Source of the DNA: Actinomycetota bacterium
GTDB lineage: Bacteria > Actinomycetota > Acidimicrobiia > IMCC26256 > PALSA-555
Length of the DNA: 64,000 nt
Assembly: GCA_003140175.1 (NCBI GenBank)
Contig: PLJD01000043.1
Coordinates: 13,271-77,270, forward strand
Direction of reading: 5' to 3'
The notes under the pieces were generated by a model. That model was not told the origin of the DNA and did not search any database. It saw only the letters and a list, made by a program, of their open reading frames with translations. Positions 28,163-64,000 of the stretch are shown one piece after another. How positions within the stretch are numbered: position 1 is the stretch's first letter; each line of letters begins with the position of its first letter. The position numbers were made by a program, and so were the translations under genes.

Positions 28163-28205
28163 GTCATCGTCACGAGCCACGGCAGCCGGCACCGAGGAGG
28201 CCCAG

Positions 28206-30817: not shown

Positions 30818-30843
30818 GCGCCCCGAAGCTGCGATCGCGAGCC

Positions 30844-38168: not shown

Positions 38169-38216
38169 CGAAAGGTCGGTGCCAGGCCAGCACGTGCCGA
38201 ACGGGCCACGGGCGCC

Positions 38217-44970: not shown

Positions 44971-45948
44971 TCACAGCTCGATCAGGGTCGGGACGCTTCG
45001 GGCCGCGACCAGCCGCCGGCCGACATCCACCACGATCTCGTCGGCTGATCCGAAGACTCCTTCGAGGGCCATGGTCCGCTTCAGGTACCGGTGGAAGGGG
45101 TGGTCGGTGGTGAAGCCGATGCCCGCCAACACCTGCTGGCAGTGGGCGGTGACGGTCCGGTTCGTCCGGCCGGCGATCGCCTTCGCGACCGCCGCCGTGT
45201 CGGGACTCGACTCGTCCCACGCGGCGCACACGCTCGCCTCGAGGGCCTCGACGGCCACCAGGGAGTCGGCCAGCCGGTGACGGACGGCCTGGAAGCCTGC
45301 GACCGGGCGACCGAACTGCACCCGATCCAGGGCGTGGGCGCGCGCCAGGTCGAGCATGGCCCGGTCGGCTCCTGCGATCTGACGTGCCACGGCGCGTCGA
45401 CCGCACGCGACCGCCGCGTCCCAGGTGGCGGTGGCGAGCGGCACCGCATCCGCTGCAGGAACCTCCCCCCGGACCAGACGCAGCCCGCCGTCGGGATCGA
45501 CGCCGTACACAGCGCCGACGTCTGCGACGGTCCGCGGCACGGTCACGGTCCGGAGCTCCACCCCCGCGGCGCACACGACCAGGAGCTCGGCTGCGGTCGC
45601 GGCTCGTACGGAGGCGATTCCGCGCAGGTGCACCCGGTCGCCATCGAGGGACCCCGGCGGTCCCCACCCGGCGAACCAGGGGAGGAGGACGGCGAGGTCG
45701 GGGCGCGGCTGCGCGCCAAGGCCGGCTGCGAGCACGTCGTCGAGGACTGTCGCCGTGGCGTTGGTGCGGCCGAGCGCACCGAACACGATCTCGATCGCGT
45801 CGCGTGGCTCGGCGCACAGCATCTCCCGCCATCCGATCCGGACGAGGGCCTCGTCGACGGCTGCACGGTCGTCGGTCGAGGCCGACGCGTCCGCGATCGC
45901 GTCTTCGACCGTCGACCGGAGCAGCGCCCGCTCCGCATCTTCCATCAT
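44971..45948 (-). CDS. acyl-CoA dehydrogenase family protein, short beta-type subunit
   Basis: 325 aa. It shows only C-terminal-domain similarity (RVQFGRPVAGFQAVRHRLAD...GIGFTTDHPFHRYL). ATGA overlap with the upstream full-length ACAD. Confidence 0.8.
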   Translation of the reverse strand: MMEDAERALLRSTVEDAIADASASTDDRAAVDEALVRIGWREMLCAEPRDAIEIVFGALGRTNATATVLDDVLAAGLGAQPRPDLAVLLPWFAGWGPPGSLDGDRVHLRGIASVRAATAAELLVVCAAGVELRTVTVPRTVADVGAVYGVDPDGGLRLVRGEVPAADAVPLATATWDAAVACGRRAVARQIAGADRAMLDLARAHALDRVQFGRPVAGFQAVRHRLADSLVAVEALEASVCAAWDESSPDTAAVAKAIAGRTNRTVTAHCQQVLAGIGFTTDHPFHRYLKRTMALEGVFGSADEIVVDVGRRLVAARSVPTLIEL

Positions 45949-47132: not shown

Positions 47133-47899
47133 GGGCGCGGGAGACCGATCGGACGGGGCGTCACGGTGACGGATGGCACCGACATGCTCGAGCCGCCCCG
47201 GAGCACCGTCTCGACGATGTTCACGAGCTCGTCGACCTCGATGAGTGAACCGCTCAGATAGCTGCGCGCGATCCACAGCGGGTGGAGCTCAGCGGCCAGG
47301 TCCTGGTCCCACCCGCGAGCGAACGCCGTCGTCGAGTCGCCATCCCCGCCGGCACAGTCGCCGACGACGAGACGGGTGAAGCCGATACCGCCGTGCTCCG
47401 CGCGCCAGGCCTCGACCAGTTTGTCGAGTGCCGCTTTGCTCACTGCATAGGCACCGAGGCCGGGCCAGGGAGGCGTGAGCGACGCGCTGACCGAGGACAG
47501 GTAGACCGCGGCTCCCGCCGACTCGGCGAGGTGGGGGAGCGCGGCGGTCGTGACGAGCGCCGCGCCCGTCACGTTGGTGTCGAAGACACGACGCCACGTG
47601 TCGGCGTCGGTGTCGGCAAGCCGTGCCAGCGGGCCGATCCCGGGCGCGTAGACGAGGGCGTCGATCCCGCCGAGCCCGGTCGCCGCTTCCGTGATGGCCA
47701 CCCCGCAGGATCCGGCGTCGGTGACGTCGCACTCGATCGCCAGTGCACCCGAACCGGCCTCCTCGGCGGCGGCCTCGAGTCGTTGCCGCCGTCGGGCCAG
47801 CAGCGCAACCCGCGCACCCCGTTCCGCGAGCCCGATCCCGATGCAGCGCCCGAGACCGCTCGAGGCGCCAACGACGACGGCCCGCAACGGTCGCTTCAT
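47129..47899 (-). CDS. short-chain dehydrogenase/reductase
   Basis: AVVVGASSGLGRCIGIGL and YAVSKAAL. Paralog of 15262..16020. Confidence 0.85.
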   Translation of the reverse strand: MKRPLRAVVVGASSGLGRCIGIGLAERGARVALLARRRQRLEAAAEEAGSGALAIECDVTDAGSCGVAITEAATGLGGIDALVYAPGIGPLARLADTDADTWRRVFDTNVTGAALVTTAALPHLAESAGAAVYLSSVSASLTPPWPGLGAYAVSKAALDKLVEAWRAEHGGIGFTRLVVGDCAGGDGDSTTAFARGWDQDLAAELHPLWIARSYLSGSLIEVDELVNIVETVLRGGSSMSVPSVTVTPRPIGLPRP

Positions 47900-48713: not shown

Positions 48714-49847
48714 TTAGGCGGTCGGAAGGCCGAGGATCCGCGTGGCGACGATGTTCTTCTGGATCTGCGATGTACCACCCATCACGCTCTGGGCGCGGCT
48801 GTACAGGTAGACGTTCAGGCCCAGGTCGTCGGAGTCGAGCACCGCCCGCGAACCCGAGACGCCAAGGGCCGCCGTGCCGACGGTCTGCTCGACCCACGTC
48901 ATCAGGAGCTTGTCGACGGAGCCGCCTGGCCCGTGCTCGACACCGTCCAGTCGCTCGGACAGGCGTCGGCGGACGTGCAGGCGGAGCATCTCCGCCTGCA
49001 CGTAGGCCCAGGTAACTTGCTCTCGCTGGTCGCTCCGGAACGCGCTCGGGCTCGCACGCACCGCGCGCTCCATCTCGTTGACGGTCTTCGCGTACCGGGC
49101 GACGTACCCAAGCTCGCCAGGCTCGCGTTCATGGCTGACGATCGTCATGGCGATGCGCCACCCCTCGCCGGGCTCGCCGATCATATTCTCGGCGGCAACG
49201 CGTGCGCCGTCGAAGTGCACCTGTCCGAACTCGGTGGTGATGCCGTTGATCATCCGCAGTGGCCGTTGCTCGATGCCGGATTGGTCCATCGGCAACGCGA
49301 ATGCCGACAGCCCTTTGTGCTTCGGCACATCGGGATCGGTGCGCGCGAGGAGGAAGCACCAGTCGGCGACGTCGGAGTAGCTCGTCCACACCTTGTGACC
49401 GTTGATCACGTAGTCATCGCCGTCACGCGTGGCCGTGGTGCGCAGCGACGCCAGGTCTGAGCCAGCGTCGGGCTCACTGAAGCCCTGGCACCACCGCTGG
49501 CGCCCACTGATCAGGCCGGGCAGGAACCGATCCTTGATCGCGTCGCTCCCGTGCGCCGTGATCCCCTGGACGAGGTACCCGAGGCTCGGGCGCGGTGGTG
49601 CGCCGGCGGCCGCGAGCTCGTCGTCGAGGATCACGTCGAAGACCGTCGGCAGGTCGTGACCGCCGAAGCGGGCGGGCCAGCTCAGGCCGAAGAAGCCGGC
49701 GTCGTAGAGCGCGGTGTGCCACTCGGCCTGTCGGACCCAGTACTCGTCGTTGGTCGAGGAGGCCGGCAAGCCCAGGTTGTGCTCGGCGAGCCACGCGCGT
49801 AGCCGGCTCCGGAACTCAGCTTCCGCCGGCGAGTCACGGAAGTCCAT
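48714..49847 (-). CDS. acyl-CoA dehydrogenase (alpha-type)
   Basis: Motifs WCQGFSEPDAGSDL, GHKVWTS and GGTSQIQKNIVATRILGL. ATG at 49847 overlaps the upstream gene by 14 nt. Confidence 0.9.
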   Translation of the reverse strand: MDFRDSPAEAEFRSRLRAWLAEHNLGLPASSTNDEYWVRQAEWHTALYDAGFFGLSWPARFGGHDLPTVFDVILDDELAAAGAPPRPSLGYLVQGITAHGSDAIKDRFLPGLISGRQRWCQGFSEPDAGSDLASLRTTATRDGDDYVINGHKVWTSYSDVADWCFLLARTDPDVPKHKGLSAFALPMDQSGIEQRPLRMINGITTEFGQVHFDGARVAAENMIGEPGEGWRIAMTIVSHEREPGELGYVARYAKTVNEMERAVRASPSAFRSDQREQVTWAYVQAEMLRLHVRRRLSERLDGVEHGPGGSVDKLLMTWVEQTVGTAALGVSGSRAVLDSDDLGLNVYLYSRAQSVMGGTSQIQKNIVATRILGLPTA

Positions 49848-50886
49848 CGACGGTCCCCAACCGCTCTCGCTCGAGCTGGCGCAGCTGCTCGCCGTCGTCA
49901 CCGAACCACTGGGAGGAGAGCAATGCACGCCGCAGGAACACGTGGACGAGGCATTCCCACGTGTTCCCGATCCCGCCGTGCACCTGCACCGCGGTCTCGC
50001 AGACATCCCGGGCCGCGCGTGCGCAATACGCCTTGGCCACCCGTCCGGCAGTTCGGGCATCGGCGGGCGGCAGGTCGTCGACGGCCCACGACGCGTGCAG
50101 CGCGACGCTGATGGAACCCTCCATCAGGCAGTGCGCGTCGGCGAGAAGGTGTTGCACAGCCTGGAACGAGCCGACAGGAACCCCGAATTGTCGGCGCTCG
50201 ACCGCGTAAGCGACCGCGAGCTCGAGCACCCCGCGCATCAGCCCGACGAGGTCGGCACTCGTCAGCGCCAAGCCGAGCGCGGTCCAGGAGGCGAGCTCGT
50301 CGTCCGTCAGGATCCGACGCTGGCCGGGAACCTCGACGACGGTTGCGCCGGGAGGGATCAGACAGGTGCTCCTCGTGAGATCGGCACCGTGGTCCGCGCC
50401 GATCGCCGCGCCGTCGACCCGGACCTGCGCGAGGCGGTACCCACCGCCGACGCGGACGAGGCCGTACACCGGGCCACCGTCGGCGGGCAGGTCGACCGCG
50501 TGGAGTGCTGTTGTCGTGACGGGAGTCTCCAGTACGGCCACTCCGAGCAGATCGGGCGTGTACGCGACTACAGGCGTCCCCAGGTTGGCGGCTCCGCAGC
50601 GTCGGGCCAGGTCGGCGGCGAGGACGGGGCCCCCGAACGCAACGTCGGCGACGGTTTCCGCCAGTCCTTCCGCGAGGATCGCCGCCTCGACGCCGCCCGC
50701 GAGCGGCTCACCGTCGCCACGGTCGTCTCGGAGTTCGAGCCAGCCGGCGTCGTGCACGGCGACGGCGAGGCGTTTGGCCCGGGTCTGATCGTCGAGGTCG
50801 GCCACCGTGCTGGGCCCCAGCTGACCCGCGAGCTGGTGGGCGGCGCGCCGGAGCTCCGCCTGCTCGGGCGTGTCGCGGGTGTCCAC
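49834..50886 (-). CDS. acyl-CoA dehydrogenase family protein (beta-type)
   Basis: 350 aa with RRQFGVPVGSFQAVQHLLAD and VHGGIGNTWE. It lacks the WCQxFSEP-type middle motif. GTG start. Confidence 0.8.
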   Translation of the reverse strand: MDTRDTPEQAELRRAAHQLAGQLGPSTVADLDDQTRAKRLAVAVHDAGWLELRDDRGDGEPLAGGVEAAILAEGLAETVADVAFGGPVLAADLARRCGAANLGTPVVAYTPDLLGVAVLETPVTTTALHAVDLPADGGPVYGLVRVGGGYRLAQVRVDGAAIGADHGADLTRSTCLIPPGATVVEVPGQRRILTDDELASWTALGLALTSADLVGLMRGVLELAVAYAVERRQFGVPVGSFQAVQHLLADAHCLMEGSISVALHASWAVDDLPPADARTAGRVAKAYCARAARDVCETAVQVHGGIGNTWECLVHVFLRRALLSSQWFGDDGEQLRQLERERLGTVDGLP

Positions 50887-50945
50887 GTAGGTAGAACCTA
50901 GTTATTCAAATTTGGGAATACAAAACCCAACCATCAGATCACGTT
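50887..50945 (-). promoter_or_regulatory. AT-rich promoter/operator candidate upstream of the ACAD operon
   Basis: TAGTTATTCAAATTTGGGAATACAAAA is by far the most AT-rich stretch I saw in the window. It sits directly upstream of the GTG at 50886 and contains the inverted repeat TATTC-N8-GAATA (50903-50920). Confidence 0.3.
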
Positions 50946-51047
50946 CCGTGGCCGGCCCGGCCGCGCCACGCGCCCGGTACCGCGGCTCGGTGAGCACGCC
51001 GACGCGACGTTCCGCCCTGACCCAACCAGCTGAGGTTGCGTGCAGGG

Positions 51048-51619
51048 TCAGTGATCGGTCTGCGCACGAGCGAGGAGCCCGCGCGCGATCACGAGTGCCT
51101 GGATCTCGTTCGTGCCCTCGCCGATGATCATGAGCGGCGCATCGCGGAAATAGCGCTCGACGGGGAGCTCGTCGTGTATCCGATGCCGCCATGTATCCGC
51201 ATGGACTCCGTGGCTAGCTCGAGTGCCGTCTCGCTCGGGAACAGTTTGGCCATGCCGGCTTCGACGTCGCAACGGAGCCCGGCCTGCCTCCGCTCCTCGG
51301 CGGAGACGGTCAGCAGCCGCGCCGCTTCGAGACCCGTCGCCATGTCGCCGAGCTTCAGCTGGATGGCATGGTGCTGCGCGATCGGCTTCCGCGTCGTCAC
51401 CCGCTGCTGAGCGTAGGAGAGCGCCGCGTCGAACGCCGCACGTGCCACTCCGACGGCACGCGCCGCGATGTTGATTCGCCCGACCTCGAGCACGCTCAGG
51501 ATCTGCGGGAGCCCACGCCCTGCAGCGCCGAGGAGCGCGTCCGCTGGGAGGCGGTGGTCGACGTAGACCATCTCCACCGTCTCGATCCCCGGCAGCTCCG
51601 GTTCGGTCTGCATGCTCAT
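51048..51619 (-). pseudogene. acyl-CoA dehydrogenase remnant (5-prime truncated and frameshifted)
   Basis: Only the C-terminal half of an ACAD is present (VDHRLPADALLG...RINIAARAVGVARAAFDAALSYAQQRVTTRKPIAQHHAIQLKLGDMA...HGGIGYT). The conserved end PVERYFRDAPLMIIGEGTNEIQALVIARGLL lies in another frame (ORF 51048..51272). The switch is near 51185, beside a C4 run. Confidence 0.7.
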
Positions 51620-51622
51620 GCG

Positions 51623-52765
51623 CTAGATCGACAGGATCGACACGCCGGCGGTCCCGGGAGCGCCGTAGAGCTGTGTGTAGCCGACCTTGGGGCGTCCCGG
51701 GACCTGTCGGTCGCCGGCCTGCGCGCGCAGCTGCAGCACGATCTCGTGGACCTGTCGGAGCCCGGACGCGCCGATCGGCTCGCCGTTCGCGATGAGCCCG
51801 CCGTCGGTGTTGACCGGCAGTGCCCCGCCGATCTCGAGCGCGCCGTCGGCCACCAAGGCCTCCTGGTCGCCGTCACAGCAGAAGCCGTTCTCGGCGAGGT
51901 GGATGATCTCGGCCCCGGCGTCGGTGTCCTGGAGCTGTATGACGTCGACGTCTTCGGGGCCGAGGCCGGCGATCTCGAACGCCGCTCGCGACGCGTCCAC
52001 CGTGGGCCCGACGGTCTCCTCTACGGGGAGCCAGGGGCTGTGAACCTCGAAAGCGCCGAGGCGCCGGGTCCGTACGGTCGTGGCGCGGAGGTAGATCGGA
52101 GTGTCGGTGTAGCGGCGGGCATCTTCGGCGCGACACAGCACCACCGCGGCGGCGCCCTCGTCGGGACTGCAGAACATGTACTGAGTGAGCGGATAGTTCA
52201 GCATCGGCGATCCGAGGATCTCGTCCTCACTGAGGGGCTTGCGCCGAAACGCGTTCTCGTTCAACGCACCGTTTCGCAGGTTCTTCGCCACCACCTTGGC
52301 CAGCGTCGAGTGCGAGATGCCGTGATCGTGCATGTACTTGTTGATCTTCATCCCGAAGAACTTCGTGGTGACGAACTGCCCGAGCTCGCCGTACCAAGAC
52401 GGGCACGCGTACTGACGGGGGTCGGCGCTGAAAGCGCCGGGTAGGTGCTTGTCCATGCCGACGGCGATGCCCAGGCCGTGATCCCCAAGCCGGATCGTGT
52501 CGGAAGCAAGGGTGAGCGCGCTCGCGGCGGTGGCGCACCCGTTATAGACGTCGGTGAAGGGGATCCCCGTGAGTCCGAGGAGCGCGACCACCGCGTCGGG
52601 GTTGTCGACTTCGTAGCTTCCTCCGAAGGCGAACTGGATGTCACGCCACTCGACACCCGCGTCGCCGAGGGCCCGACGGATCGCGATAGCGCCCATCTCA
52701 ATTCCCGACACACCTGGAAAGCGACCGAACGGATGCAGGCCGACTCCCACGATGGCAACGTCCAT
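51623..52765 (-). CDS. thiolase-like protein (SCP-x / lipid-transfer-protein type)
   Basis: MDVAIVGVGLHPFGRF, YNGCATAASAL and NTDGGLIANGEPIGASG. The position I remember as GHP reads GEP. The usual partner, a DUF35 gene, lies directly upstream. Confidence 0.85.
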   Translation of the reverse strand: MDVAIVGVGLHPFGRFPGVSGIEMGAIAIRRALGDAGVEWRDIQFAFGGSYEVDNPDAVVALLGLTGIPFTDVYNGCATAASALTLASDTIRLGDHGLGIAVGMDKHLPGAFSADPRQYACPSWYGELGQFVTTKFFGMKINKYMHDHGISHSTLAKVVAKNLRNGALNENAFRRKPLSEDEILGSPMLNYPLTQYMFCSPDEGAAAVVLCRAEDARRYTDTPIYLRATTVRTRRLGAFEVHSPWLPVEETVGPTVDASRAAFEIAGLGPEDVDVIQLQDTDAGAEIIHLAENGFCCDGDQEALVADGALEIGGALPVNTDGGLIANGEPIGASGLRQVHEIVLQLRAQAGDRQVPGRPKVGYTQLYGAPGTAGVSILSI

Positions 52766-52808
52766 ACCGGTGTCCTCTCTCTGCGTGTTCGTGCTCGCGA
52801 TCGTGCGT

Positions 52809-53228
52809 TCAGCCGACCGGACGGAACGCGAAGGTCATGACCTCATCTCCGTCGCGGTCGCGGAACGGCACCAAAACGAGCTCCATCTCCATCCCTTGCG
52901 TCAACGCGCTGGGATCGGCCTCGGTCAGGCGGGCCTCCACTCTCACTTCACCGCCGAGTTCCACGTACCCGACGCCGAAGGGGACGAACGCGTCGCCGGT
53001 AGGCCCGGCATACGGTGGCGACGGCGGTGGGAAGTCCTGGGTCGTCCATGCCCACAGACGGCCTCGCCGGGCCAGGAGATGCTCCTCCATCGCCGTGGAC
53101 GGGCAGCGTGGGCACGACACCTGCGCTGGAAACGTGACGATCTGACACAGAGTGCAGCGGCTTCCGATGAGCTGTGGCTGGTCGGACGGCCAGGTGAAGA
53201 TGCCGTCCGCGATCGGGACTTGCGCCAT
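52809..53228 (-). CDS. Zn-ribbon / OB-fold protein (DUF35 family)
   Basis: CTLCQIVTFPAQVSCPRC (four-Cys ribbon) is followed by an OB-fold-like part, VPFGVGYVELGGEVRVEARL. ATG at 53228. Confidence 0.8.
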   Translation of the reverse strand: MAQVPIADGIFTWPSDQPQLIGSRCTLCQIVTFPAQVSCPRCPSTAMEEHLLARRGRLWAWTTQDFPPPSPPYAGPTGDAFVPFGVGYVELGGEVRVEARLTEADPSALTQGMEMELVLVPFRDRDGDEVMTFAFRPVG

Positions 53229-53431
53229 CAGGTCCTCCAGTCGTCGGGTTCCCACCGCAGATACGCAGGTCGGCGATCGTCGGAGACGCGGATCGTGAAC
53301 CCGGGCCGTCGCCGGTCGCGACGTGCCGCGATGCCTTCGCGCGCGTCAGGCGCGACGGCGGCCGCGGCACCACGGCGCGCCAGCCCATCGACGCCCGCAA
53401 TTTCGCACTGGATCGCCTTGTCGTCGGTCAC
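53228..53431 (-). CDS. small hypothetical protein (67 aa), coupled at both ends
   Basis: GTG at 53431 overlaps the acyl-CoA synthetase stop (GTGA), and its TGA overlaps the DUF35 ATG (TGATG). By my count about 80% of third positions are G/C. No recognisable motif. Confidence 0.45.
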   Translation of the reverse strand: MTDDKAIQCEIAGVDGLARRGAAAAVAPDAREGIAARRDRRRPGFTIRVSDDRRPAYLRWEPDDWRT

Positions 53432-55008
53432 GACGGCACCGCCCGGGCCCGCAGCTCGTCCTTGACCACCTTCCCGGTCGCGTTGACGGGCAGCGCGTCG
53501 AGGAAGACAACCGACCGAGGCACCTTGAAGTTCGCCATTTCGTCGCGAGCCCACGCGATGATTTCTGACGACTCGACCGGCGGACCAGGAGCGAGCACCA
53601 CAAAAGCCTGGCCGACCTCGCCGAGGCGAGCGTCGGGGACGCCGATCACCGCCACCTGCGCGATGCGTGGGTGACGCAACAGCAGATTCTCGATTTCGGC
53701 GGGGTACGCGTTGAAGCCGCCGACGATGAACATGTCCTTGATCCGCCCGACGATCCGCAGGTAACCGTCGGCGTCGAAGGTGCCGAGGTCACCGGTGTGG
53801 AGCCATCCGCGGTCGTCGATCGCGGCGGCGGTCGCGTCCGGATCGTCGAGGTAGCCGCGCATCACCGTCTCACCCCGCACCACGACCTCGCCCGGCTCTC
53901 CGGGCAGCGTGCCGGCTCCCGCTTCGGTGACCGTGCGGACCTCGAAGCCTTCCCACGGCACGCCGACCGTCGTGGCGACATGCTCGAAGTCGTCATCGGG
54001 CCTGCTGCCTGTGACCGTGCCAGCTTCGGTGAGCCCGTACCCGGTGAGGATGTGCTCAAACGGCAGCTCCTCGCGCACCCGACGGATCAGCTCCACCGGT
54101 ATGTCAGCTGCCCCGGTGACGGCGACGCGCAGGCTCGAGATGTCGCGCCGCGCGCGGTCCGGATGGTCGAGCAGGGTCTGGTAGATCGTCGGCGGTCCCG
54201 GGAGCACCGAGATCCGCTCGCGCTCGACAAGCTCGAGAACGACCGCGGGGTCGAACACGGCGACCGGGACGATCGTCGAACCGCGCATGAGCGATGCGAG
54301 GCAGCCGGCCTTGTAGCCGAAGATGTGGAAGAACGGGTTCGCGATGAGGTAGCGGTCGCCCGGGCGAAGGTCGGCCCAGTCGCACCACGCGAGATAGGCG
54401 CGCAACGTCTGGCCGTGCGCCATCACCACACCCTTGGGGCTCCCGGTTGTGCCGGAGGTGAAGACGACGTCGCTGGGGTCGTCCGGACCGATCGATCCGA
54501 GGCGAGCCTCCAGGTCCGCGTCGGGTAGGTCGCGCTCCCGAGCGAGGAACTCGTCCCAGGCAACCGATGCGTCGTCGGCGTCACCGGACAGCAGAATGGT
54601 GTGCTGGAGATCGGGGAGCGGTGCCCCGGCGTCCGCGAGGAGCGCGGGGTAATCCGTGTCCAGGAACCCCCGCACGGTGAACAGGGCGCGTGCCCGGGAC
54701 GCAGTGAGCACGAACGCCGCCTCGGACCCCCGGAACCGCGTGTTGACCGGGACCAGCACTCCGCCCGCCGTGGTAACGCCGAGCGCGGCGACGATCCACT
54801 GCAGGGAGTTCGGAGCCCACACCGCGACCCGGTCACCCCGTTCGACCCCCGACGCGAGGAGCGCGCGGGCGCCTCGTGTGACCATCGCCGAGAGCTCGGC
54901 GAATCCCACTCGACGTGCGCCGTCCACCACTGCCTCGGCGTCGCCGTACCGACGCGCCGCGTCCCGGACCATGGCGGGAACCGTGGGCCAGGTGACCTCG
55001 CTGCGCAC
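53428..55008 (-). CDS. acyl-CoA synthetase (AMP-forming, FadD-like)
   Basis: Motifs TSGTTGSPKGV, GYGLTEAG and DRGWLHTGDLG. The start is uncertain: GTG at 55008 after GGGGG, with 55014 and 54972 as alternatives. Confidence 0.85.
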   Translation of the reverse strand: MRSEVTWPTVPAMVRDAARRYGDAEAVVDGARRVGFAELSAMVTRGARALLASGVERGDRVAVWAPNSLQWIVAALGVTTAGGVLVPVNTRFRGSEAAFVLTASRARALFTVRGFLDTDYPALLADAGAPLPDLQHTILLSGDADDASVAWDEFLARERDLPDADLEARLGSIGPDDPSDVVFTSGTTGSPKGVVMAHGQTLRAYLAWCDWADLRPGDRYLIANPFFHIFGYKAGCLASLMRGSTIVPVAVFDPAVVLELVERERISVLPGPPTIYQTLLDHPDRARRDISSLRVAVTGAADIPVELIRRVREELPFEHILTGYGLTEAGTVTGSRPDDDFEHVATTVGVPWEGFEVRTVTEAGAGTLPGEPGEVVVRGETVMRGYLDDPDATAAAIDDRGWLHTGDLGTFDADGYLRIVGRIKDMFIVGGFNAYPAEIENLLLRHPRIAQVAVIGVPDARLGEVGQAFVVLAPGPPVESSEIIAWARDEMANFKVPRSVVFLDALPVNATGKVVKDELRARAVPS

Positions 55009-55123: not shown

Positions 55124-56140
55124 ATGCTTCCCGATCACGAGTACCACCCGCTGCGGATCGTCGACGCGGTCGACGAGACCGGTGACACGCGCTCCTTCGT
55201 ACTGGAGGTCTCGTCCGCCCTTGAGGAGACGTTCGCCTACGCCGCCGGGCAGTTCTGCACGTTCCGGGCCACGATCGACGACGAATCCGTGGTCCGGTGC
55301 TACTCGATGTCGAGCTCGTCCGACACGGGCGAGCGATTCACCACGACGGTCAAGCGGGTCCCCGGCGGACGCATGTCGAACTGGATGATCGATACGCTCG
55401 CACCGGGCGACACCATCGACGTCATGCGGCCCGCGGGTCTCTTCGTGCTGCGCGAGACACGCGTCCCAATCGTCGCGTTCGCCGGTGGCAGCGGCATCAC
55501 CCCGGCGATCTCGGTCATCAAGAGCGCGCTTGCCACCACAACGCGTGCCATCACCCTCGTGTACGCCAACCGCAGCGCCGACTCGGTAATCTTCGCCGAC
55601 GAGCTCGGCCGCCTAGCCGCGGCATCGGGCGGGCGGTTCTCAGTTCAGCACCATCTCGATTCGGAGCGCGGATTCCTGGATGCCGCGGCATGCGCAGCGT
55701 TCGTGGGTGAGCGCACGCAGGCTGACTTCTACGTCTGCGGTCCGGGCCCGTACATGGATACGGTCGAGGCCGGCCTCGCGCTGCTCGACGTCTCGCCCGC
55801 GCAGCTGTTCATCGAGCGATTCGTCGTCCCGGAAGACGGGGATGCCACCGACGAGGTCCGCGCCACGGCGTCACTCGTGATCCGCCTCGAGAGCCGCGAG
55901 CACAGCCTCGCCTACCAGGCGGGCGACACTCTCCTCGAGGCCGCCCGGCGCGCCGGCCTCAGCCCGCCGTACTCGTGCGAGGCGGGCAGCTGTGCCACCT
56001 GCATGGCGCATCTCGACGTGGGATCCGCCACGATGCGGGTGAACAATGCGCTCACTCCGGACGAGGTCGACACCGGCTGGGTGCTGACCTGCCAGGCGAT
56101 CCCGACCAGCCCGGAGGTCGTGGTCGACTACGACGCGTGA
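55124..56140 (+). CDS. FNR-type flavin reductase fused to a plant-type [2Fe-2S] ferredoxin (PDR/KshB/PaaE-like)
   Basis: RCYSMSS (RxYS flavin motif), GGSGITP (NAD(P)H site) and C-terminal CEAGSCATCMAHL...LTCQA. ATG at 55124. Confidence 0.85.
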   Translation: MLPDHEYHPLRIVDAVDETGDTRSFVLEVSSALEETFAYAAGQFCTFRATIDDESVVRCYSMSSSSDTGERFTTTVKRVPGGRMSNWMIDTLAPGDTIDVMRPAGLFVLRETRVPIVAFAGGSGITPAISVIKSALATTTRAITLVYANRSADSVIFADELGRLAAASGGRFSVQHHLDSERGFLDAAACAAFVGERTQADFYVCGPGPYMDTVEAGLALLDVSPAQLFIERFVVPEDGDATDEVRATASLVIRLESREHSLAYQAGDTLLEAARRAGLSPPYSCEAGSCATCMAHLDVGSATMRVNNALTPDEVDTGWVLTCQAIPTSPEVVVDYDA

Positions 56141-57279
56141 CCTGTCTCCGTCGCCGGCGGCGCGAGGAGCTCCTCGGTGTGCTCGTGCAGCCGCGGTGGC
56201 ACCCGGTACTCCGGGCGCGCGTCGTTGAAGCGGATCGGACTCCCGACCATCTGCAACGGTCCGTCGGCGGTGTCGACGGACACGACCATGCCGCGCGAAC
56301 GGACGAGCTCACCATCGAGCGCATCGCCAAGACCGACCACCGCACCCACCGCGATCCCGAGCGGCCGGAGACGCTCGACCCACTCCTGCGCCGTCGCCTG
56401 CGTGAGCCGGGCGGCGAGCGCGTCGAGCAGCTCGTCGCGATGCTCGGAGCGCGCGTGCATCGTTGCGAACCGCGGATCGTCCGCCCACTCGGGGCGTTCG
56501 ATCTCACCGCACAGTCGCCGCCAGAACTCGTCATGGGTGACGAACAGTGCGACGTACCCGGACGCCGTCGCGAAGAGCTGCGCCGGCACGTAGAACGCAT
56601 GAGCCCCGAGCGGCTGACGGGACGGCGCGCCGCCGCCGTTGAGGTAGGTCGCCGCCTTGTAGTTGAGCTGCGACAGCATGACGTCGAAGAGCGAGACGTC
56701 TACCTGGCCCCCCTTGCCTTCGAGGACCTTCGCCACGAGCCCGAGCGCAGCCATGATCCCAGACGAGTTGTCAACGGCGGAGTACCCGGCCAGGGTGGGT
56801 GGTCCGTCAGGTTCCCCCGTCATGTCGGCCACGCCTGCCATCGCCTGGATCACGTAGTCGAACGCGGGCCACTCGGCGGCCGGACCCTCGAGCCCGTACC
56901 CCGTGACCGCGACGCACACGATCTTCGGGTTGAAGCGATGCAGCGACTCGTAGTCGAGCCCGAGCCGCCTGATCGCCGAGGGACGCAGGTTCACCAGCAG
57001 CGCGTGTGCCGTCGTCGCGAGCTCGCCCAGCTCCGCCTGTCCCAGTGTGGAGGTCAAGTCGATATGGACGCTGCGCTTGTTGCGGTTCAGGCTCGCGAAG
57101 TACACGTTGTGCTCGTCGACGCGCTGCGAACCCACCTGCCGGGAGAGGTCGCCCGCGAGCGGCTCGATCTTGATCACGTCGGCCCCGAGGTCCGCGAGCA
57201 ACATCCCCCCGTAGGGGCCTGCGAGGATGTGTCCCACCTCGAGCACGCGGATCCCGGTGAGTGGACCGGTGGGCGGCAA
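56128..57279 (-). CDS. family III CoA-transferase
   Basis: LTGIRVLEVGHILAGPYGGMLLADLGADVIKIEP and ASLNRNKRS. TTG at 57279 lies 7 nt after AAGGAG. The upstream part of track ORF 56128..57810 is antisense to the SDR gene. Confidence 0.85.
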   Translation of the reverse strand: MPPTGPLTGIRVLEVGHILAGPYGGMLLADLGADVIKIEPLAGDLSRQVGSQRVDEHNVYFASLNRNKRSVHIDLTSTLGQAELGELATTAHALLVNLRPSAIRRLGLDYESLHRFNPKIVCVAVTGYGLEGPAAEWPAFDYVIQAMAGVADMTGEPDGPPTLAGYSAVDNSSGIMAALGLVAKVLEGKGGQVDVSLFDVMLSQLNYKAATYLNGGGAPSRQPLGAHAFYVPAQLFATASGYVALFVTHDEFWRRLCGEIERPEWADDPRFATMHARSEHRDELLDALAARLTQATAQEWVERLRPLGIAVGAVVGLGDALDGELVRSRGMVVSVDTADGPLQMVGSPIRFNDARPEYRVPPRLHEHTEELLAPPATETGHAS

Positions 57280-57367: not shown

Positions 57368-58111
57368 ATGAGCCGCGTCGCAGTCGTCACCGGCGCCGCC
57401 TCGGGTATGGGCCTGGCGGTGGCCCGCCACCTCGCGGACCGGGGGCACCGGCTCGGGCTCCTCGATCTCGACGCTGCCGCGGTGCAACAGGCCGCCGCGA
57501 ACCTGCAGAGCTCCGGCACGCACGCGCTCGGTGCCGCCGTAGATGTCGCTGACCGCGCGACGGTCGACGAGGCGCTGGGCAAGGTCCGCAGCGAGCTCGG
57601 TCCGGTGGAGATCATCGTGACGAGCGCCGGCATCGACGAGTTCACGTCGTTCACCGACATCACCGCCGAGTCGTGGAACCGCGTCGTCGCTGTCAACCTC
57701 ACCGGGACGTTCCACTGCCTCCAGGCCGCCATCCCCGACATGCTGGATGCGGGCTGGGGCCGCATCGTGACGATCTCCTCGTCGAGCGCGCAGTCGGGCG
57801 CCGCGCGCATGGCCCATTACGTCGCCTCGAAGGGCGGGGTCATCGGCCTCACCAAGGCATTGGCGAAGGAGTATGCAGCCCACGGGATCACCGTGAACAC
57901 GATTCCCCCGGGCTTCATCGACACGCCCATGGTGCGTCGGGCCGAGGCGGCCGGCGACCTCCCGAGCATCGACGCCGTCACCGCGCGCACGCCCGTGCGG
58001 AGGGCCGGGACGCCCGACGACATCGCGGCCGCCTGCGTGTTCCTCTGCTCGGACGAAGCCGGCTACATCACCGGTCAGCAGATCAACGTCAACGGCGGTT
58101 GGTACATGTGA
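57368..58111 (+). CDS. short-chain dehydrogenase/reductase (FabG-like)
   Basis: Motifs VAVVTGAASGMGLA, TSAGI, YVASKGGV and NVNGGW. Confidence 0.9.
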   Translation: MSRVAVVTGAASGMGLAVARHLADRGHRLGLLDLDAAAVQQAAANLQSSGTHALGAAVDVADRATVDEALGKVRSELGPVEIIVTSAGIDEFTSFTDITAESWNRVVAVNLTGTFHCLQAAIPDMLDAGWGRIVTISSSSAQSGAARMAHYVASKGGVIGLTKALAKEYAAHGITVNTIPPGFIDTPMVRRAEAAGDLPSIDAVTARTPVRRAGTPDDIAAACVFLCSDEAGYITGQQINVNGGWYM

Positions 58112-59501: not shown

Positions 59502-60455
59502 ATGCGCGTCGGCATGATGGTGGGTCCGGAGCGAGGCCGCTACGCGGCCAAGGTCGACCGGCTCCGAGCTGACGGTCGGTGGGCCGAGGACGCCGGCCTC
59601 GCGTCGGTCTGGATCCCCCAGATCCCCGATGACTTCGACGCCTTGACCGCCGTCGCCGTCGTCGCCGCGGACACGACGCGGATCGAGATCGGTACCGCGG
59701 TGGTCCCAATCCAACCTCGCCATCCGATCGCGCTCGCGCAGCATGTGCTGTCGGTCCAGGCGGTGTGCGACGGACGTCTCGCACTCGGTCTCGGCGTGTC
59801 GCACCACTGGGTTATCGACACGATGCTCGGGTTGCCCTACGAGCGACCCGCGTCGACCATGCGCGCGTACCTCGACGTCCTCGATCAGGCACTCCGCGGA
59901 AACGGCAATGTGGATGTCGAGAACGAGGTGTTCCGCGTGCACAACCCGCTCGACATCACTGACATCGCTCCCACCCCGGTCCTGCTCGCTGCGCTGGGTC
60001 CGGTCATGCTCCGATTGGCCGGTGAGCGGACCGACGGGACCATCCTGTGGATGGCCGACGAACGGGCGATCGGTTCGCACGTCGTCCCGACCATCACGCA
60101 CGCGGCCGAGGCGGCGGGACGGCCGGCACCGCGCGTCGTCGCCGGCATCCCGGTGTGCCTCTGCGGTGACGACGAGGTCGACGTCGCCGAAGCGCGGGCG
60201 AACCGCATCCTCGCCGAGGCGGAGATGTCGCCGAACTATCAGCGGTTGCTTGAGCACGGCGACGCTCGAAATGTCGGCGACATCCTCGCGGCGGGGAGCG
60301 AGGCGACGATCGAGCAGCGGTTGCGTTCCTTCGCCGACGCCGGCGTCACAGACATCTCGGTCCGGGTCATGCCGATCGGTCAGGGCCGAGACGAGCTCGT
60401 GGCGTCCTACCAACGGACGCGGGCCTTCGTCGCGGCACTCACCGAGCGTCTCTGA
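59502..60455 (+). CDS. luciferase-like monooxygenase family, F420-dependent-oxidoreductase type
   Basis: 317 aa with MRVGMMVGPE...AGLASVWIPQIPDDFDALT...GLGVSHHWV. Length and layout fit LLM class proteins. Confidence 0.8.
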   Translation: MRVGMMVGPERGRYAAKVDRLRADGRWAEDAGLASVWIPQIPDDFDALTAVAVVAADTTRIEIGTAVVPIQPRHPIALAQHVLSVQAVCDGRLALGLGVSHHWVIDTMLGLPYERPASTMRAYLDVLDQALRGNGNVDVENEVFRVHNPLDITDIAPTPVLLAALGPVMLRLAGERTDGTILWMADERAIGSHVVPTITHAAEAAGRPAPRVVAGIPVCLCGDDEVDVAEARANRILAEAEMSPNYQRLLEHGDARNVGDILAAGSEATIEQRLRSFADAGVTDISVRVMPIGQGRDELVASYQRTRAFVAALTERL

Positions 60456-60521: not shown

Positions 60522-60932
60522 CTACGAGTGGAGGTGATCCGTTTCTGACAGCGCTCGCATGCTGTCGAGCAGCACCTCGAGCGGGGTCCCGGTCGGGTAG
60601 ACGGCGGCGGCACCGGCGGCCTTGAGCCGTGCGACATCGCGCTGGGGGACCGTGCCGCCCACGACGAGCAGGACGTCATCGGCGCCGACCGCCCGAAGCG
60701 CGTCCGCGGTCTTGCGCGTCAGCGCGAGATGCGCGCCGCTGAGGATGCTGAGGCCGACGATCTGCACGCCTTCCTGGAGCGCGACCGACGCGATCGCCTC
60801 AGGGCGCTGGCGGATCCCCGTGTAGATGACCTCGAAGCCGGCGTCACGCAGCGCTCGTGCGACGAGCTTCGCGCCCCGGTCGTGACCGTCGAGTCCGGGC
60901 TTCGCGACGAGGACACGCGCCGGCCCCGGCAT
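60522..60932 (-). CDS. acyl-CoA mutase small subunit (cobalamin-binding domain)
   Basis: VLVAKPGLDGHDRGAKLVARALRDAGFEV contains the DxHxxG base-off/His-on B12 motif, plus GLSILSG. ATG at 60932 shares one base with the large-subunit stop. Confidence 0.9.
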   Translation of the reverse strand: MPGPARVLVAKPGLDGHDRGAKLVARALRDAGFEVIYTGIRQRPEAIASVALQEGVQIVGLSILSGAHLALTRKTADALRAVGADDVLLVVGGTVPQRDVARLKAAGAAAVYPTGTPLEVLLDSMRALSETDHLHS

Positions 60933-62518
60933 CAGAACACCGCCGGCTGCTGGAACTCGCCCCACTTGCCCTTGAGCACGTCGACCATCTCGCCGACGGT
61001 GCAGTACGCCTTCGCGCAGTCCACGAGGCGTGGCATCAGGTTGTCGTCGTCGCGGGCTGCGGCGGCACCCAACGCGGTGAGGGTCGCGCGTACCTCCGAC
61101 GACGAGCGCGAGCGTTTTACCTCGGCGAGCCGCTCGAGTTGGCGGATCCGGCCCTGTTCGTCCATCTCGTAGCCCTCCACCTCGGGCGGGTCGTCGTCGG
61201 TCTCGAACCGGTTGACCCCGACGATCGCGCGCTCCCCGGAGGTAATCGCCTGCTGGACGCGGAACGCCTCCTCCGAAATGAGGCGCTGCAGGTAGCCCTC
61301 CTCGACGGCTTGCACCATTCCGCCCCGCCGCTCGAGGTCGTCCATGATCTCGACGACCCGGGCTTCCATCTCGTTGGTGAGCGCCTCGACGTAGTACGAG
61401 CCTCCCAGCGGATCGGCAACCCGGGCCACGCCGGTCTCGTAAGCCAGCACCTGTTGGGTCCGCAGCGCGAGTGTGGCCGAGTCTTCGCTCGGGAGCGCGA
61501 ACGGCTCGTCCCAGGCCGCGGTGAACATCGACTGGACGCCGCCGAGGACCGACGCCAGCGCCTCGTAGGCGACGCGGACGACATTGTTCTGCGCCTGGGG
61601 TGCGTACAGGGACGCGCCGCCGGCGACGCAGCCCACGCGGAACATGCAGGAGCGGTCATCCTTCGCCCCATACCGTTCCCGGACGATGCGGGCCCAGCGC
61701 CGGCGTCCGGCCCGGTACTTGGCGATCTCCTCGAAGAAATCGCCGTGCGTGTAGAAGAAGAAGGACACCTGGGGTGCGAACTCGTCGATCGTCATGCGAC
61801 CTCGCGCCATCACCTCGTCGCAATAGGTGATGCCGTCCATGAGCGTGAACGCCATCTCCTGGGCCGCATTGGCGCCGGCGTCGCGGAAGTGGGCTCCGGC
61901 CACCGAGATGGCGTTGAACCGAGGCACCTCTTCGGCGCAGAACTCGATCGTGTCGGCGATGAGGCGCAGCGACGGCCGGGGTGGCCAGATCCACGTGCCA
62001 CGGCTCACGTACTCCTTCAGGATGTCGTTCTGGATCGTCCCTCGGAGCTTCGCTCGCTCGACACCCTGCTTCTCACCGACGGCCACATAGAAAGCGAGCA
62101 GGATCGCGGCGGTGCCGTTGATCGTGAAGCTCGTACTGATCGCGTCGAGGGGGATCGCGTCGAACAGGATCTCGGCATCGGCGAGCGTGTCGAGCGCGAC
62201 GCCGACCCGCCCGACCTCCTCTTCGACGTCGGGGTGATCGGAGTCGTATCCGCACTGCGTCGGGAGGTCAAGGGCAACCGACAGGCCGGTCCCGCCCTGG
62301 GCGAGGAGATAGCGGTACCGCTTATTCGACTCCTCGGGCGTCCCGAAGCCTGAGTACTGGCGGATGGTCCAGACGCGCCCGCGGTAGCCGTCGCGAAAGT
62401 TCCCCCGCGTGAACGGGAACTCGCCGGGCGGCGGGAGCGACTCGGTCGGGGGCAGGTCGGCGGGGCCGTAGCTCACCGCCAGCGGGATCCCCGCCTCGCT
62501 GTGCACCCCGTCGTCCAC
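60932..62518 (-). CDS. acyl-CoA mutase large (substrate-binding TIM-barrel) subunit, methylmalonyl-CoA-mutase family
   Basis: FPFTRG, WTIRQYSGFG, GLSVALDLPTQ, GTIQNDILKEY, FFEEIAKYRAGRRRWA and DPLGGSYYVE. No B12 domain is present in this chain. Confidence 0.9.
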   Translation of the reverse strand: MDDGVHSEAGIPLAVSYGPADLPPTESLPPPGEFPFTRGNFRDGYRGRVWTIRQYSGFGTPEESNKRYRYLLAQGGTGLSVALDLPTQCGYDSDHPDVEEEVGRVGVALDTLADAEILFDAIPLDAISTSFTINGTAAILLAFYVAVGEKQGVERAKLRGTIQNDILKEYVSRGTWIWPPRPSLRLIADTIEFCAEEVPRFNAISVAGAHFRDAGANAAQEMAFTLMDGITYCDEVMARGRMTIDEFAPQVSFFFYTHGDFFEEIAKYRAGRRRWARIVRERYGAKDDRSCMFRVGCVAGGASLYAPQAQNNVVRVAYEALASVLGGVQSMFTAAWDEPFALPSEDSATLALRTQQVLAYETGVARVADPLGGSYYVEALTNEMEARVVEIMDDLERRGGMVQAVEEGYLQRLISEEAFRVQQAITSGERAIVGVNRFETDDDPPEVEGYEMDEQGRIRQLERLAEVKRSRSSSEVRATLTALGAAAARDDDNLMPRLVDCAKAYCTVGEMVDVLKGKWGEFQQPAVF

Positions 62519-62632: not shown

Positions 62633-63424
62633 ATGCCGGAGTCGGATCGGAAGAGCACCCGTGGGGGTGTGCGCGTCGAGATCGACGCGGGAGTCGCCGT
62701 CGTCACCATCGACCGCCCCGACGTCCGCAACGCCATCGGCGCCGCGACGGTCGACGAGCTCGGGGCAGCGCTCGATCACGTGCTGGAGTCCAGCGCGGCC
62801 GTACTTGTCCTCCGCGGCGCGGGCGATCGAGCCTTCGTCTCGGGTGGCGACCTCAAGGAGCTCAGCGCGATTCGGACGCACGAGGCCGCCGTCGAGATGG
62901 CGAGTGGGGTACGGCGAGTCCTGGACCGAGTGGCTGCCTTCCCGGTCCCGGTGATCGCCGCGCTCAACGGGCATGCCCTCGGCGGTGGAGCAGAGGTCGC
63001 GATCGCGGCAGATGTCCGAATCGCGGCGGACGACGTCAAGATCGGCTTCAACCAGGTGACCCTCGGCATCATGCCAGCGTGGGGTGGCGCAGAGCGGCTC
63101 GCCCAGACGGTCGGGCGGAGCCGGGCGCTGCTGGCGATCGCGACCGGCGACCTCCTCGACGCGCCCACCGCACAGCACTGGGGCCTCGTCGACATCGTCG
63201 TCCCGCGGGCCGCATTCGACGACGAATGGCGCGCGCTCGCGCGTCGACTGGTGACGTCTGCGCCGGGGACGACGCGCGCGGTGAAGGCAGTCATCGCGGC
63301 CGCATTCCCCTCCGTCCATCCGGACCTCGAGGCCGACGCCACCGACGCGTTCGCGCGGCTGTGGACCGCGGACGCGCACTGGGCCGCGGTCGAAGCGTTG
63401 GAGCAGAAGAGGCGAGCCGGGTAG
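62633..63424 (+). CDS. enoyl-CoA hydratase/isomerase
   Basis: VVTIDRPDVRNAI, LRGAGDRAFVSGGDLKE and AALNGHALGGG. ATG at 62633 follows GAGAGGG. Confidence 0.85.
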   Translation: MPESDRKSTRGGVRVEIDAGVAVVTIDRPDVRNAIGAATVDELGAALDHVLESSAAVLVLRGAGDRAFVSGGDLKELSAIRTHEAAVEMASGVRRVLDRVAAFPVPVIAALNGHALGGGAEVAIAADVRIAADDVKIGFNQVTLGIMPAWGGAERLAQTVGRSRALLAIATGDLLDAPTAQHWGLVDIVVPRAAFDDEWRALARRLVTSAPGTTRAVKAVIAAAFPSVHPDLEADATDAFARLWTADAHWAAVEALEQKRRAG

Positions 63425-63448: not shown

Positions 63449-64000
63449 TCAGACCCGGTCGAGATCGAGCATCCGGATCGCGTTCCCGCGGAGCACCTTG
63501 TAGCGCTGCTCGTCTGTCAGCGCCGCGGTCATGCGCTCCGCCTCCTCGCGGGCGAACGGCCACGTCGTGTCGGTGTGCGGGTAATCCGTCTCGAAGCAGA
63601 TGTTGTCCTCGCCGACCGCGTCGATAGACGCCACCCCGTGAACATCATTCGTGAAGCACCCGAAGATCCGACCGCGGTAGTAGGTAGACGGCGGTTCGGG
63701 AATCGCGTCCTTCGCGTGCGTCCAGTTCGAGTGGTACTCCCACGTGTTGTCGGCTCGCTCCAGGGCGTACGGGATCCAACCGATCTGACCTTCGGAGTAG
63801 GCCAGCTTGAGCTCGGGATATCGCACGAGCACCCCGGAGAACAAGAAGTCCGCCAGTGACGCCATGGAGTTGTTGAACGACAGCATGATGTCCGTCGACG
63901 GTGGCGCGTCCGGAGACGCGGCCGGCATCTTGGACGACGACCCGATGTGCATGCACAGCACTGTGCGCGTCTCCTCACACACCGCGAACAGGGGATCCCA
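63449..64000 (-). CDS. amidohydrolase, PF04909 type (partial; 5-prime end beyond the window)
   Basis: C-terminal 180 aa are collinear with and highly similar to the gene at 8911..10140. The frame stays open to the window edge. Confidence 0.85.
   Translation of the reverse strand, partial: WDPLFAVCEETRTVLCMHIGSSSKMPAASPDAPPSTDIMLSFNNSMASLADFLFSGVLVRYPELKLAYSEGQIGWIPYALERADNTWEYHSNWTHAKDAIPEPPSTYYRGRIFGCFTNDVHGVASIDAVGEDNICFETDYPHTDTTWPFAREEAERMTAALTDEQRYKVLRGNAIRMLDLDRV

Follow-up and report, generated by a model that had tools for sequence, protein, structure and literature searches.

The 64-kb stretch of actinobacterial DNA analysed here, referred to throughout as the window, carries on its minus strand a pair of open reading frames (ORFs) of 528 and 136 aa at positions 60522-62518. 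Judged from its sequence, the pair is a split acyl-CoA mutase of the adenosylcobalamin (AdoCbl) type, with AdoCbl as its predicted cofactor, and a member of a discrete, uncharacterised clade that is common to Actinomycetota and Proteobacteria. The residues that hold the substrate carboxylate in methylmalonyl-CoA mutase (MCM) are retained in the large subunit, and much of the remaining pocket is altered. We consider it most likely, with a probability of roughly 0.6, that the two proteins form a functional heteromeric AdoCbl-dependent enzyme, which would interconvert a substituted succinyl-CoA and a substituted malonyl-CoA.

To our knowledge, the specificities recognised so far among acyl-CoA mutases are few, namely those of MCM, isobutyryl-CoA mutase (ICM) and IcmF, ethylmalonyl-CoA mutase (ECM), 2-hydroxyisobutyryl-CoA mutase (HCM) and RCM, and pivalyl-CoA mutase (PCM), together with the proposed ones of IaaGH and ActD/MatB. 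Each new specificity has so far opened a metabolic pathway as well as a biocatalytic carbon-skeleton rearrangement. The clade described here is abundant: a single scan turned up at least 569 loci. It ranges from Acidimicrobiia to Mycobacterium, Streptomyces, Cupriavidus, Variovorax, Comamonas and Paraburkholderia. The sources annotate the large subunit uniformly as methylmalonyl-CoA mutase family protein, a blanket label which appears to conceal a separate functional group.

Gene pair and substrate pocket

An initial annotation, made from the DNA alone, had described a split B12-dependent mutase with a DxHxxG small subunit and a one-base overlap between the two genes, and the obtained results agreed with this description. 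At the junction, which reads ...TTC TGA TG CCG, the TGA of the large subunit and the ATG of the small subunit overlap by one A at 60932, forming TGATG. The large subunit gave full-length matches to PF01642 (657 bits) and TIGR00641 (663 bits, cut-off 304), while the small subunit matched PF02310 (86 bits) and TIGR00640 (152 bits, cut-off 57). The DGHDRG sequence of the small subunit represents the DxHxxG motif and aligned with the same motif in HcmB and in the C-terminus of ScpA. The small subunit shares 47% identity with M. petroleiphilum HcmB and 50-53% with its proteobacterial counterparts.

The window is GC-rich (66-72% GC). The nearest relatives of the large subunit, at 92% amino-acid identity, were found in metagenome-assembled genomes of Acidimicrobiia, and public metagenome contigs encode an identical large-subunit protein. 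No cobalamin riboswitch or other Rfam element was matched in the window, and the inverted repeats present between the mutase and the neighbouring crotonase-fold gene were weak.

The substrate pocket was mapped with HMMER alignments of the large subunit to the human, M. tuberculosis and P. shermanii MCMs, with which independent MAFFT alignments agreed. Residues are numbered as in P. shermanii, where adding one to the chain index of 1REQ reproduced Tyr89, Gln197, Arg207, Tyr243 and His244. Four residues of the three solved MCMs were retained in the window protein, namely Tyr89 (Y55), Gln197 (Q163), Arg207 (R173) and His244 (H210). The equivalents of Tyr89, His244 and Arg207 in human MCM (Tyr110, His265 and Arg228) contact the substrate (PMC11988910). 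The Tyr of TIRQY and the Arg of KEYVSRGTW, which the initial annotation had named as kept, correspond to Y55 and R173. It had also described both as replaced in ICM and HCM; HcmA carries Ile and Gln at these positions.

The remainder of the canonical MCM pocket (Tyr243, HxQTSGW and SLHTN(S/A)) was not observed, and A209, GCVAGGA and SMFTAAW stand in its place. Near His244, Tyr243 is replaced by A209 and Glu247 by D213. The HxQTSGW segment reads GCVAGGA (His328 to G296, Gln330 to V298, Thr331 to A299, Ser332 to G300 and Trp334 to A302) and the LHTNSx segment reads MFTAAW (Leu363 to M331, His364 to F332, Asn366 to A334, Ser367 to A335 and Leu368 to W336), where the P. shermanii numbers from His328 to Leu368 assume that the 1REQ alignment line dropped its first residue, given a length mismatch, and are possibly off by one. 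Thoma, Evans and Leadlay reportedly described Tyr243 as an active-site residue of MCM in 2000, and we take His328, Gln330 and Asn366 to be pocket positions with structural roles. HcmA keeps SGYH, HCQTAA and SLHTNG, all of which are altered in the window protein. The initial annotation had called the segments AGAHFRDAG, GCVAGG and SMFTAAWDE non-canonical. Because the HMMER alignments to three MCMs and the MAFFT alignments agree, we conclude that the three segments are truly divergent and correctly placed, and not an artefact of misalignment.

An AlphaFold2 model of the large subunit, built on 38 homologues (pLDDT 70.6, pTM 0.77), presented the eight strands of the barrel. A Foldseek search with this model returned HcmA (4r3u) at a TM-score of 0.86, followed by human MCM (2xiq) at 0.85. 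The altered residues were located in or just past the predicted strands 5 (201-207), 7 (295-299) and 8 (330-333), and the C-terminal strand ends are where the active sites of TIM barrels sit. The model and the substitutions together suggest a wider and more hydrophobic pocket.

Phylogenetic placement and gene neighbourhood

Relatives were collected in a scan of one genome per species, which yielded the loci counted above. The best 80 of the at least 569 related loci, which are actinobacterial and whose large subunits are 75-92% identical, were used for all counts out of 80 given below. Their hosts were Acidimicrobiia, Mycobacterium, Mycolicibacterium, Mycolicibacter, Nocardia, Rhodococcus, Streptomyces, Blastococcus, Solirubrobacterales and Thermoleophilaceae. 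A proteobacterial sister clade, 56-57% identical, was found in Cupriavidus necator H16, Variovorax, Comamonas, Hydrogenophaga, Rhodoferax, Diaphorobacter, Paraburkholderia, Marinobacter and Sulfitobacter.

The pocket signature was found to be fixed on both sides. The pattern AGAH[F/V]RDAG was present in 119 of 120 actinobacterial homologues and in all 120 proteobacterial ones, the latter reading AGAHVRDAG throughout, followed by FGVVCGGSSL and S[I/V]FTCAFDE. MFTAAWD occurred in 120/120 actinobacterial and [I/V]FTCA[F/L]D in 120/120 proteobacterial homologues. The equivalents of Tyr89 and Arg207 were essentially invariant across the same two sets, and the columns G296, V298, G300, G301, F332, T333 and A335 were invariant in both clades. 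The three segments questioned above are thus near-invariant in the clade, and the replacements of Tyr243 by Ala and of Glu247 by Asp likewise.

In a neighbour-joining tree, the actinobacterial and proteobacterial clades joined at 100/100 bootstrap support, apart from HcmA, E. coli ScpA and representatives with canonical MCM motifs. The clustering with confirmed MCMs that would have spoken for an ordinary enzyme was therefore not seen; the window protein is 44% identical to ScpA, and its best match in the PDB is HcmA. A library of representatives at 50% identity held a single full-length entry of the window protein's own clade (P0121, 825 bits, 71% identical), and the best match outside the clade reached 556 bits at 52% identity. 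Since the clade is tight and discrete and its signature is fixed, the substitutions represent more than drift.

The same library contained many other full-length large-subunit homologues (P0122-P0270) that are non-canonical at Tyr89, Tyr243/His244, His328-Gln330 and Asn366. Given these many other non-canonical paralogues in metagenomes, the clade is one unexplored branch among several, and the pocket diversity of acyl-CoA mutases in metagenomes far exceeds the handful of characterised specificities.

The gene neighbourhood is conserved together with the pocket. A small-subunit homologue adjoined the large subunit in 78 of the 80 loci. The most consistently linked partner, which the initial list of neighbours had left out, was a family III CoA-transferase (Table 1), found at 50% identity or more in 55/80 loci. 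Full-length alignment with its counterpart in the C. necator operon gave 53% identity. Its closest solved proteins were formyl-CoA transferase, succinate--hydroxymethylglutarate CoA-transferase and YfdE (190-215 bits), all of them true transferases with dicarboxylates or formyl-CoA as substrates. Its identification as an alpha-methylacyl-CoA racemase was rejected, as racemases scored about 60 bits against the 190-215 bits of true transferases.

The divergent enoyl-CoA hydratase-like gene (hereafter ECH) and the F420-type oxidoreductase, both named earlier as neighbours, were confirmed by their PF00378 and TIGR03564 matches, and their presence proved to be more than incidental. An ECH orthologue (at least 50% identity) occurred in 42/80 loci, separated from the mutase gene by a median of 124 bp, and the luciferase-like oxidoreductase (LLM; at least 55%) in 48/80, usually directly after the small subunit. 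The ECH was aligned with E. coli PaaF, PaaG and ScpB and with the ECHs of the proteobacterial operons. It retains the first catalytic Glu (GGGAE), whereas the second is Gln (GFNQV, against GLPEI in PaaF), a replacement seen in every aligned ECH of the clade in both phyla. ScpB, the methylmalonyl-CoA decarboxylase of E. coli, displayed the same pattern of presence and absence of the two Glu residues.

In Proteobacteria, the genes form a tight, translationally coupled operon in which an IclR regulator is followed by ECH-mutL-mutS-CoAT-MeaB (mutL and mutS being the mutase subunits and CoAT the CoA-transferase). The core was found in Cupriavidus necator H16, Variovorax, Hydrogenophaga, Diaphorobacter, Paraburkholderia and Sulfitobacter, and is followed by a carboxylate transporter (TRAP, TTT) or a LIV-type transporter. 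Identities between the window and C. necator were 57.5% for mutL, 50% for mutS, 53% for CoAT and 37% for ECH. In four betaproteobacterial genera, a 2-oxoglutarate (2OG)-Fe(II) oxygenase, an aldehyde dehydrogenase and a short-chain dehydrogenase/reductase (SDR) come after the core operon.

The initial annotation had stressed that no MeaB-like chaperone gene lies near the mutase. A tblastn search of the 64-kb window indeed gave no match for E. coli ArgK (E<=1e-3) or C. necator MeaB (E<=1e-5), and PF03308 was absent from all scanned ORFs of the window. As a feature of the clade, the claim did not hold: a MeaB homologue (37-41% identical to ArgK) adjoins the mutase in 10/80 loci and is present in every proteobacterial operon examined, so the absence is a local arrangement and not a clade trait. 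The chaperone for the window mutase is presumably supplied in trans. Of the 60 loci in which the mutase gene had a flank of 4 kb or more on each side, LLM was present in 42, MeaB in 8 and both in none. This mutual exclusion may stem simply from phylogeny, with Mycobacteriales and Acidimicrobiia set against the other lineages, or from two alternative operon designs.

Proposed reaction and its alternatives

A dicarboxylic acyl-CoA is proposed as the substrate because the carboxylate clamp is kept and the partner CoA-transferase is of the dicarboxylate type, and an acyl group that is larger or more substituted than methylmalonyl because Gly, Ala, Val or Phe has taken the place of about ten pocket residues on strands 5, 7 and 8. 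The clamp and the enlarged pocket together make an MCM-type interconversion of substituted succinyl-CoA and malonyl-CoA the most likely activity. In the enzyme so pictured, the small subunit would bind B12 in the base-off/His-on form and the large subunit would provide the TIM barrel, in which the Tyr89 and Arg207 equivalents would hold the substrate carboxylate, that of His244 the thioester carbonyl and that of Gln197 the CoA. The reaction would be a 1,2-shift of the CoA-thioester group on a carboxylated acyl-CoA bearing an extra or larger substituent. The initial annotation had noted that the pocket changes would fit a bulkier carboxylated acyl-CoA; the mapped pocket agrees with this idea and the CoA-transferase lends it support, and the substrate class is best read as a proposal.

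With the MCMs (P. shermanii MutB, human MMUT and E. coli ScpA), the window protein has in common the fold, the domains, the residues Tyr89, Gln197, Arg207 and His244 and the DxHxxG motif; the carboxylate clamp is the same, and the radical 1,2-shift chemistry is probably the same. It differs from them in its identity of 40-45%, its split polypeptides, its altered pocket, its separate clade and its gene context. The nearest likeness in gene content is the E. coli sbm operon scpA-argK-scpB-scpC, which leads from succinate to propionate and brings together a mutase, a MeaB-type GTPase, a crotonase-fold enzyme and a CoA-transferase, as does the operon of the clade. All four types stand together in the orthologous proteobacterial operons and in 8-10 actinobacterial loci, with the window lacking MeaB and having the F420-dependent LLM.

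By analogy with sbm, the order CoA loading, rearrangement, decarboxylation and beta-oxidation is suggested. The family III CoA-transferase would load the free dicarboxylate with CoA, and it may also move CoA between the carboxyls. The mutase would rearrange the carbon skeleton, after which the crotonase-fold partner would perform a non-hydratase step, probably the decarboxylation of a substituted malonyl-CoA. The acyl-CoA product would then enter beta-oxidation, for which the candidates in the window are the downstream ligase, the DUF35 protein with the SCPx-type thiolase, and the alpha/beta acyl-CoA dehydrogenases (ACADs).

Several points weigh against this scheme. The analogy with sbm is functional and not homologous, since the clade uses a family III CoA-transferase, and ScpC of E. 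coli belongs to a different transferase family. The mutase pocket also differs from that of ScpA. His66 and Tyr140, the catalytic residues of ScpB, were not conserved in the alignment of the clade ECH, so that the case for a decarboxylase is weak. In Mycobacterium, Nocardia and Rhodococcus, many loci had no orthologous ECH within 8 kb. The AlphaFold2 model is of medium confidence only (pLDDT 70.6), and the widening of the pocket was judged from side-chain sizes and strand positions. Literature searches found no paper on this mutase clade.

A more specific and rather unlikely variant is that the clade is a dedicated mutase that resolves quaternary carbons by converting a 2,2-disubstituted malonyl-CoA to a substituted succinyl-CoA. 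One methyl of a gem-dimethyl or tert-alkyl acid would first be oxidised to a carboxyl, giving for example dimethylmalonate; in Betaproteobacteria this oxidation would fall to the 2OG-Fe(II) oxygenase, SDR and aldehyde dehydrogenase of the operon, and in the window to the P450 with the PaaE-like reductase, the SDR and the F420-dependent LLM. The CoA-transferase would activate the 2,2-disubstituted malonate, the replacement of Tyr243 by Ala would make room for the second alpha-substituent, and the mutase product would be degraded further. The idea arose because both phyla attach sets for hydroxylation and for alcohol and aldehyde oxidation that are made of non-homologous enzymes. No mutase acting on a 2,2-disubstituted malonyl-CoA (quaternary carbon) was reported in the searched literature. 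If the substrate were a bulky or doubly substituted malonyl- or succinyl-CoA, this would account for the removal by aerobic soil bacteria of branch points that stand in the way of beta-oxidation, and it would provide a new enzyme for branched dicarboxylic building blocks. Since the operon is compact and occurs in the genetically tractable Cupriavidus necator H16, the substrate and pathway are directly testable.

It is quite unlikely that the protein is an ordinary MCM of the archaeal split type, with pocket differences that arose by neutral lineage drift. The retention of Tyr89, Arg207, His244 and Gln197 and the uniform annotation as methylmalonyl-CoA mutase family protein would fit such an enzyme, and the 75-92% identity could suggest a housekeeping role. 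The substitutions are nevertheless fixed in two phyla, which is not the behaviour of drift, and they include Tyr243, a known MCM active-site residue; the clade is separate from the confirmed MCMs at 100/100 support; and the catabolic clusters that contain the gene have a CoA-transferase, a regulator and a transporter of their own. On a Diaphorobacter plasmid, moreover, another and different mutase is encoded 10 kb from the clade mutase, together with a MeaB of its own. The NCBIfam MCM equivalog NF006944 scored 579 bits, under its cut-off of 876, although part of this shortfall is a penalty because the model spans the full-length fused protein and the query is split. Our low estimate for this explanation follows from the fixed substitutions, the separation of the clade and the dedicated operon of catabolic type.

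Comparable reaction classes, namely a substituted succinyl-CoA to a substituted malonyl-CoA, have been proposed or described for IaaGH, ActD/MatB and ECM, which were compared with the window enzyme by description. ECM, a fused protein, is associated with crotonyl-CoA carboxylase/reductase, and no gene of the latter type was seen near the mutase in the loci examined. ActD/MatB is a proposed hexylmalonyl-CoA mutase of the HCM subclass, whose orthologues are few and confined to biosynthetic clusters (PMC5719088), unlike the window clade with its at least 569 loci in catabolic contexts. IaaGH is a proposed phenylsuccinyl-CoA mutase that works with the family III transferase IaaL (PMC8360864); IaaGH and MatBQ are also split, and the IaaGH cluster shares with the window clade a family III CoA-transferase (PMC8360864, PMC5719088).

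An orthologue of this phenylsuccinyl-CoA/benzylmalonyl-CoA mutase, acting on aryl-succinyl-CoA from auxin-like or other aromatic substrates, would be split as well, would take a bulky carboxylated acyl-CoA, and would work with IaaL, the ligase IaaB and the ACAD IaaF (PMC8360864). The actinobacterial clusters hold the same enzyme types, and a molybdenum hydroxylase and hydantoinase-like amidohydrolases lie elsewhere in the window. The likeness is nonetheless one of described enzyme types. The proteobacterial operons hold no ligase or ACAD and no IaaA-, IaaC- or IaaE-type genes; genes of these last three types do not adjoin the window mutase either, and the molybdenum enzyme is more than 40 kb away from it. 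The clustered ACAD was tried as a decarboxylating IaaF-like enzyme by its YEG-site motif: it carries MGG and not the GGG of IaaF. This motif was dropped as evidence, as it is not diagnostic because every alpha/beta-type ACAD in the window has xGG. We therefore hold such orthology to be improbable.

A substrate that carries no carboxylate, that is, a hydroxyacyl- or branched acyl-CoA as in HCM/RCM, ICM or PCM, with the Tyr and Arg serving another polar group, is very improbable. HcmA (4r3u_A; Aquincola, Methylibium) is the closest solved relative by sequence and structure, at 535 bits against 470 for human MCM and 47% identity to the Methylibium protein, and it is likewise split; the HCM/RCM signature of Ile for Tyr89, HcmA Asp117 and no Arg207 (TMRQI, STDFD and MAQKEY) is, however, absent, the window protein reading TIRQY, SVALD and VSRGT with Tyr, Ala and Arg as in MCM where HcmA has Ile (TMRQIAGF), Asp and Gln. 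HcmA also falls outside the clade in the neighbour-joining tree, and its gene cluster uses an acyl-CoA ligase with MeaH, whereas the window clade uses a dicarboxylate-type CoA-transferase with ECH. ICM, IcmF and PCM have Phe for Tyr89 and Gln for Arg207, whereas the window protein keeps Tyr and Arg; IcmF scored 239 bits in the PDB search, and NF045497 gave 276 bits against a cut-off of 1500. In the absence of these family-defining residues, an HCM- or ICM-type enzyme is unlikely.

Remaining genes of the window

The positions of the mutase genes and their neighbours are collected in Table 1. Some of the window gene calls (P450, ligase and downstream genes) were taken from contig L082, which is identical to the window across the region.

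Table 1. Coordinates of the mutase genes and neighbouring genes in the window
Feature	Position	Strand	Family match or motif
Large (substrate-binding, TIM-barrel) mutase subunit, 528 aa	60932..62518	(-)	PF01642, TIGR00641
Small B12-binding subunit, 136 aa counted from ATG	60522..60932	(-)	PF02310, TIGR00640, DGHDRG
Divergent crotonase-fold protein (ECH)	62633..63424	(+)	PF00378, 173 bits
F420-dependent luciferase-like oxidoreductase (LLM), MSMEG_4879 family	59502..60455	(+)	TIGR03564, 339 bits (cut-off 234)
Cytochrome P450	58145..59350	(-)	PF00067
Short-chain dehydrogenase/reductase (SDR)	57368..58111	(+)	PF13561, PF00106
Family III CoA-transferase, conserved mutase partner	56128..57279	(-)	PF02515, 370 bits
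PaaE/KshB-type ferredoxin reductase (FNR-like and 2Fe-2S)	55124..56140	(+)	PF00970, PF00175, PF00111
FadD3-family acyl-CoA ligase	53428..55008	(-)	NF005801, 763 bits (cut-off 657)
DUF35/OB-fold protein	about 52809-53228	(-)	Pfam, L082 gene call
SCPx-type thiolase	51623-52765	(-)	Pfam, L082 gene call
ORF with only the ACAD C-terminal domain, 163 aa, directly downstream of the SCPx-type thiolase	51128-51619	(-)	Pfam, L082
Pair of ACAD subunits	48714-50886	(-)	Pfam, L082 gene calls

The other genes around the mutase were less consistently conserved. The P450 (at least 60% identity) occurred in only 3/80 loci and is a weak candidate for a pathway hydroxylase; the SDR (at least 65%) was found in 16/80 and the PaaE-like reductase (at least 40%), a probable electron donor for an oxygenase, in 19/80. 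The beta-oxidation-type genes from 48714 to 53228 are tied to the mutase more loosely than the core genes are, with the ACAD starting at 48714 (at least 55%) present in 22/80 loci. The short ORF that holds only the ACAD C-terminal domain could be a truncated remnant or a stand-alone subunit.

The betaproteobacterial operon runs on past its core in C. necator H16 chromosome 2 (AM260480.1 2071799-2091424, L092) and in the loci L094, L095 and L086. This extension comprises a protein of 107-111 aa that has no Pfam match, a LIV-type solute-binding protein, a DIOX_N/2OG-Fe(II) oxygenase, an aldehyde dehydrogenase and an SDR; the oxygenase, aldehyde dehydrogenase and SDR look like a set for oxidising a methyl to a carboxyl. 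The window holds a counterpart that is parallel in function but non-homologous, made of the P450 with the PaaE-like reductase, the SDR and the F420-dependent LLM. No orthologues of the accessory operon genes (2OG oxygenase, solute-binding protein, 111-aa protein and IclR) were found in the window, and the core module alone is shared.

The window as a whole is a dense catabolic island, with example genes at 1495-2751(-), 8914-10140(-), 11311-12501(+), 25132-26547(-), 34824-35963(+) and 63449-64000(-). PF04909 (Amidohydro_2) is represented by at least six genes; P450s number four or five, and two monooxygenases resemble the flavin-containing and Baeyer-Villiger (FMO/BVMO) types. Also encoded are a Rieske oxygenase alpha subunit (5454-6989), an epoxide hydrolase, the molybdenum hydroxylase (16474-18849), a LIV-type ABC transporter and several TetR regulators. 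The Amidohydro_2 paralogues that stand beside Rieske or reductase genes might include amidohydrolase-fold oxygenases.

The long ACAD subunits at 48714-50060(-), 45945-47276(-) and 30628-32013(+) carry MGG or YGG in place of the classical catalytic YEG, which is typical of the heteromeric alpha/beta ACADs of steroid-like pathways. The interval 38001-40000 displayed an AT skew of -0.278, compared with about +/-0.08 elsewhere in the window. It lies inside the 669-aa ORF of a fused branched-chain-type ABC permease (38217-40226) with a GC content of 0.93 at third codon positions (GC3), and the drop is probably an effect of the codon or amino-acid composition of a membrane protein. A 451-aa protein at 28161-29513(+) contains two TetR_N domains, an unusual tandem TetR architecture.

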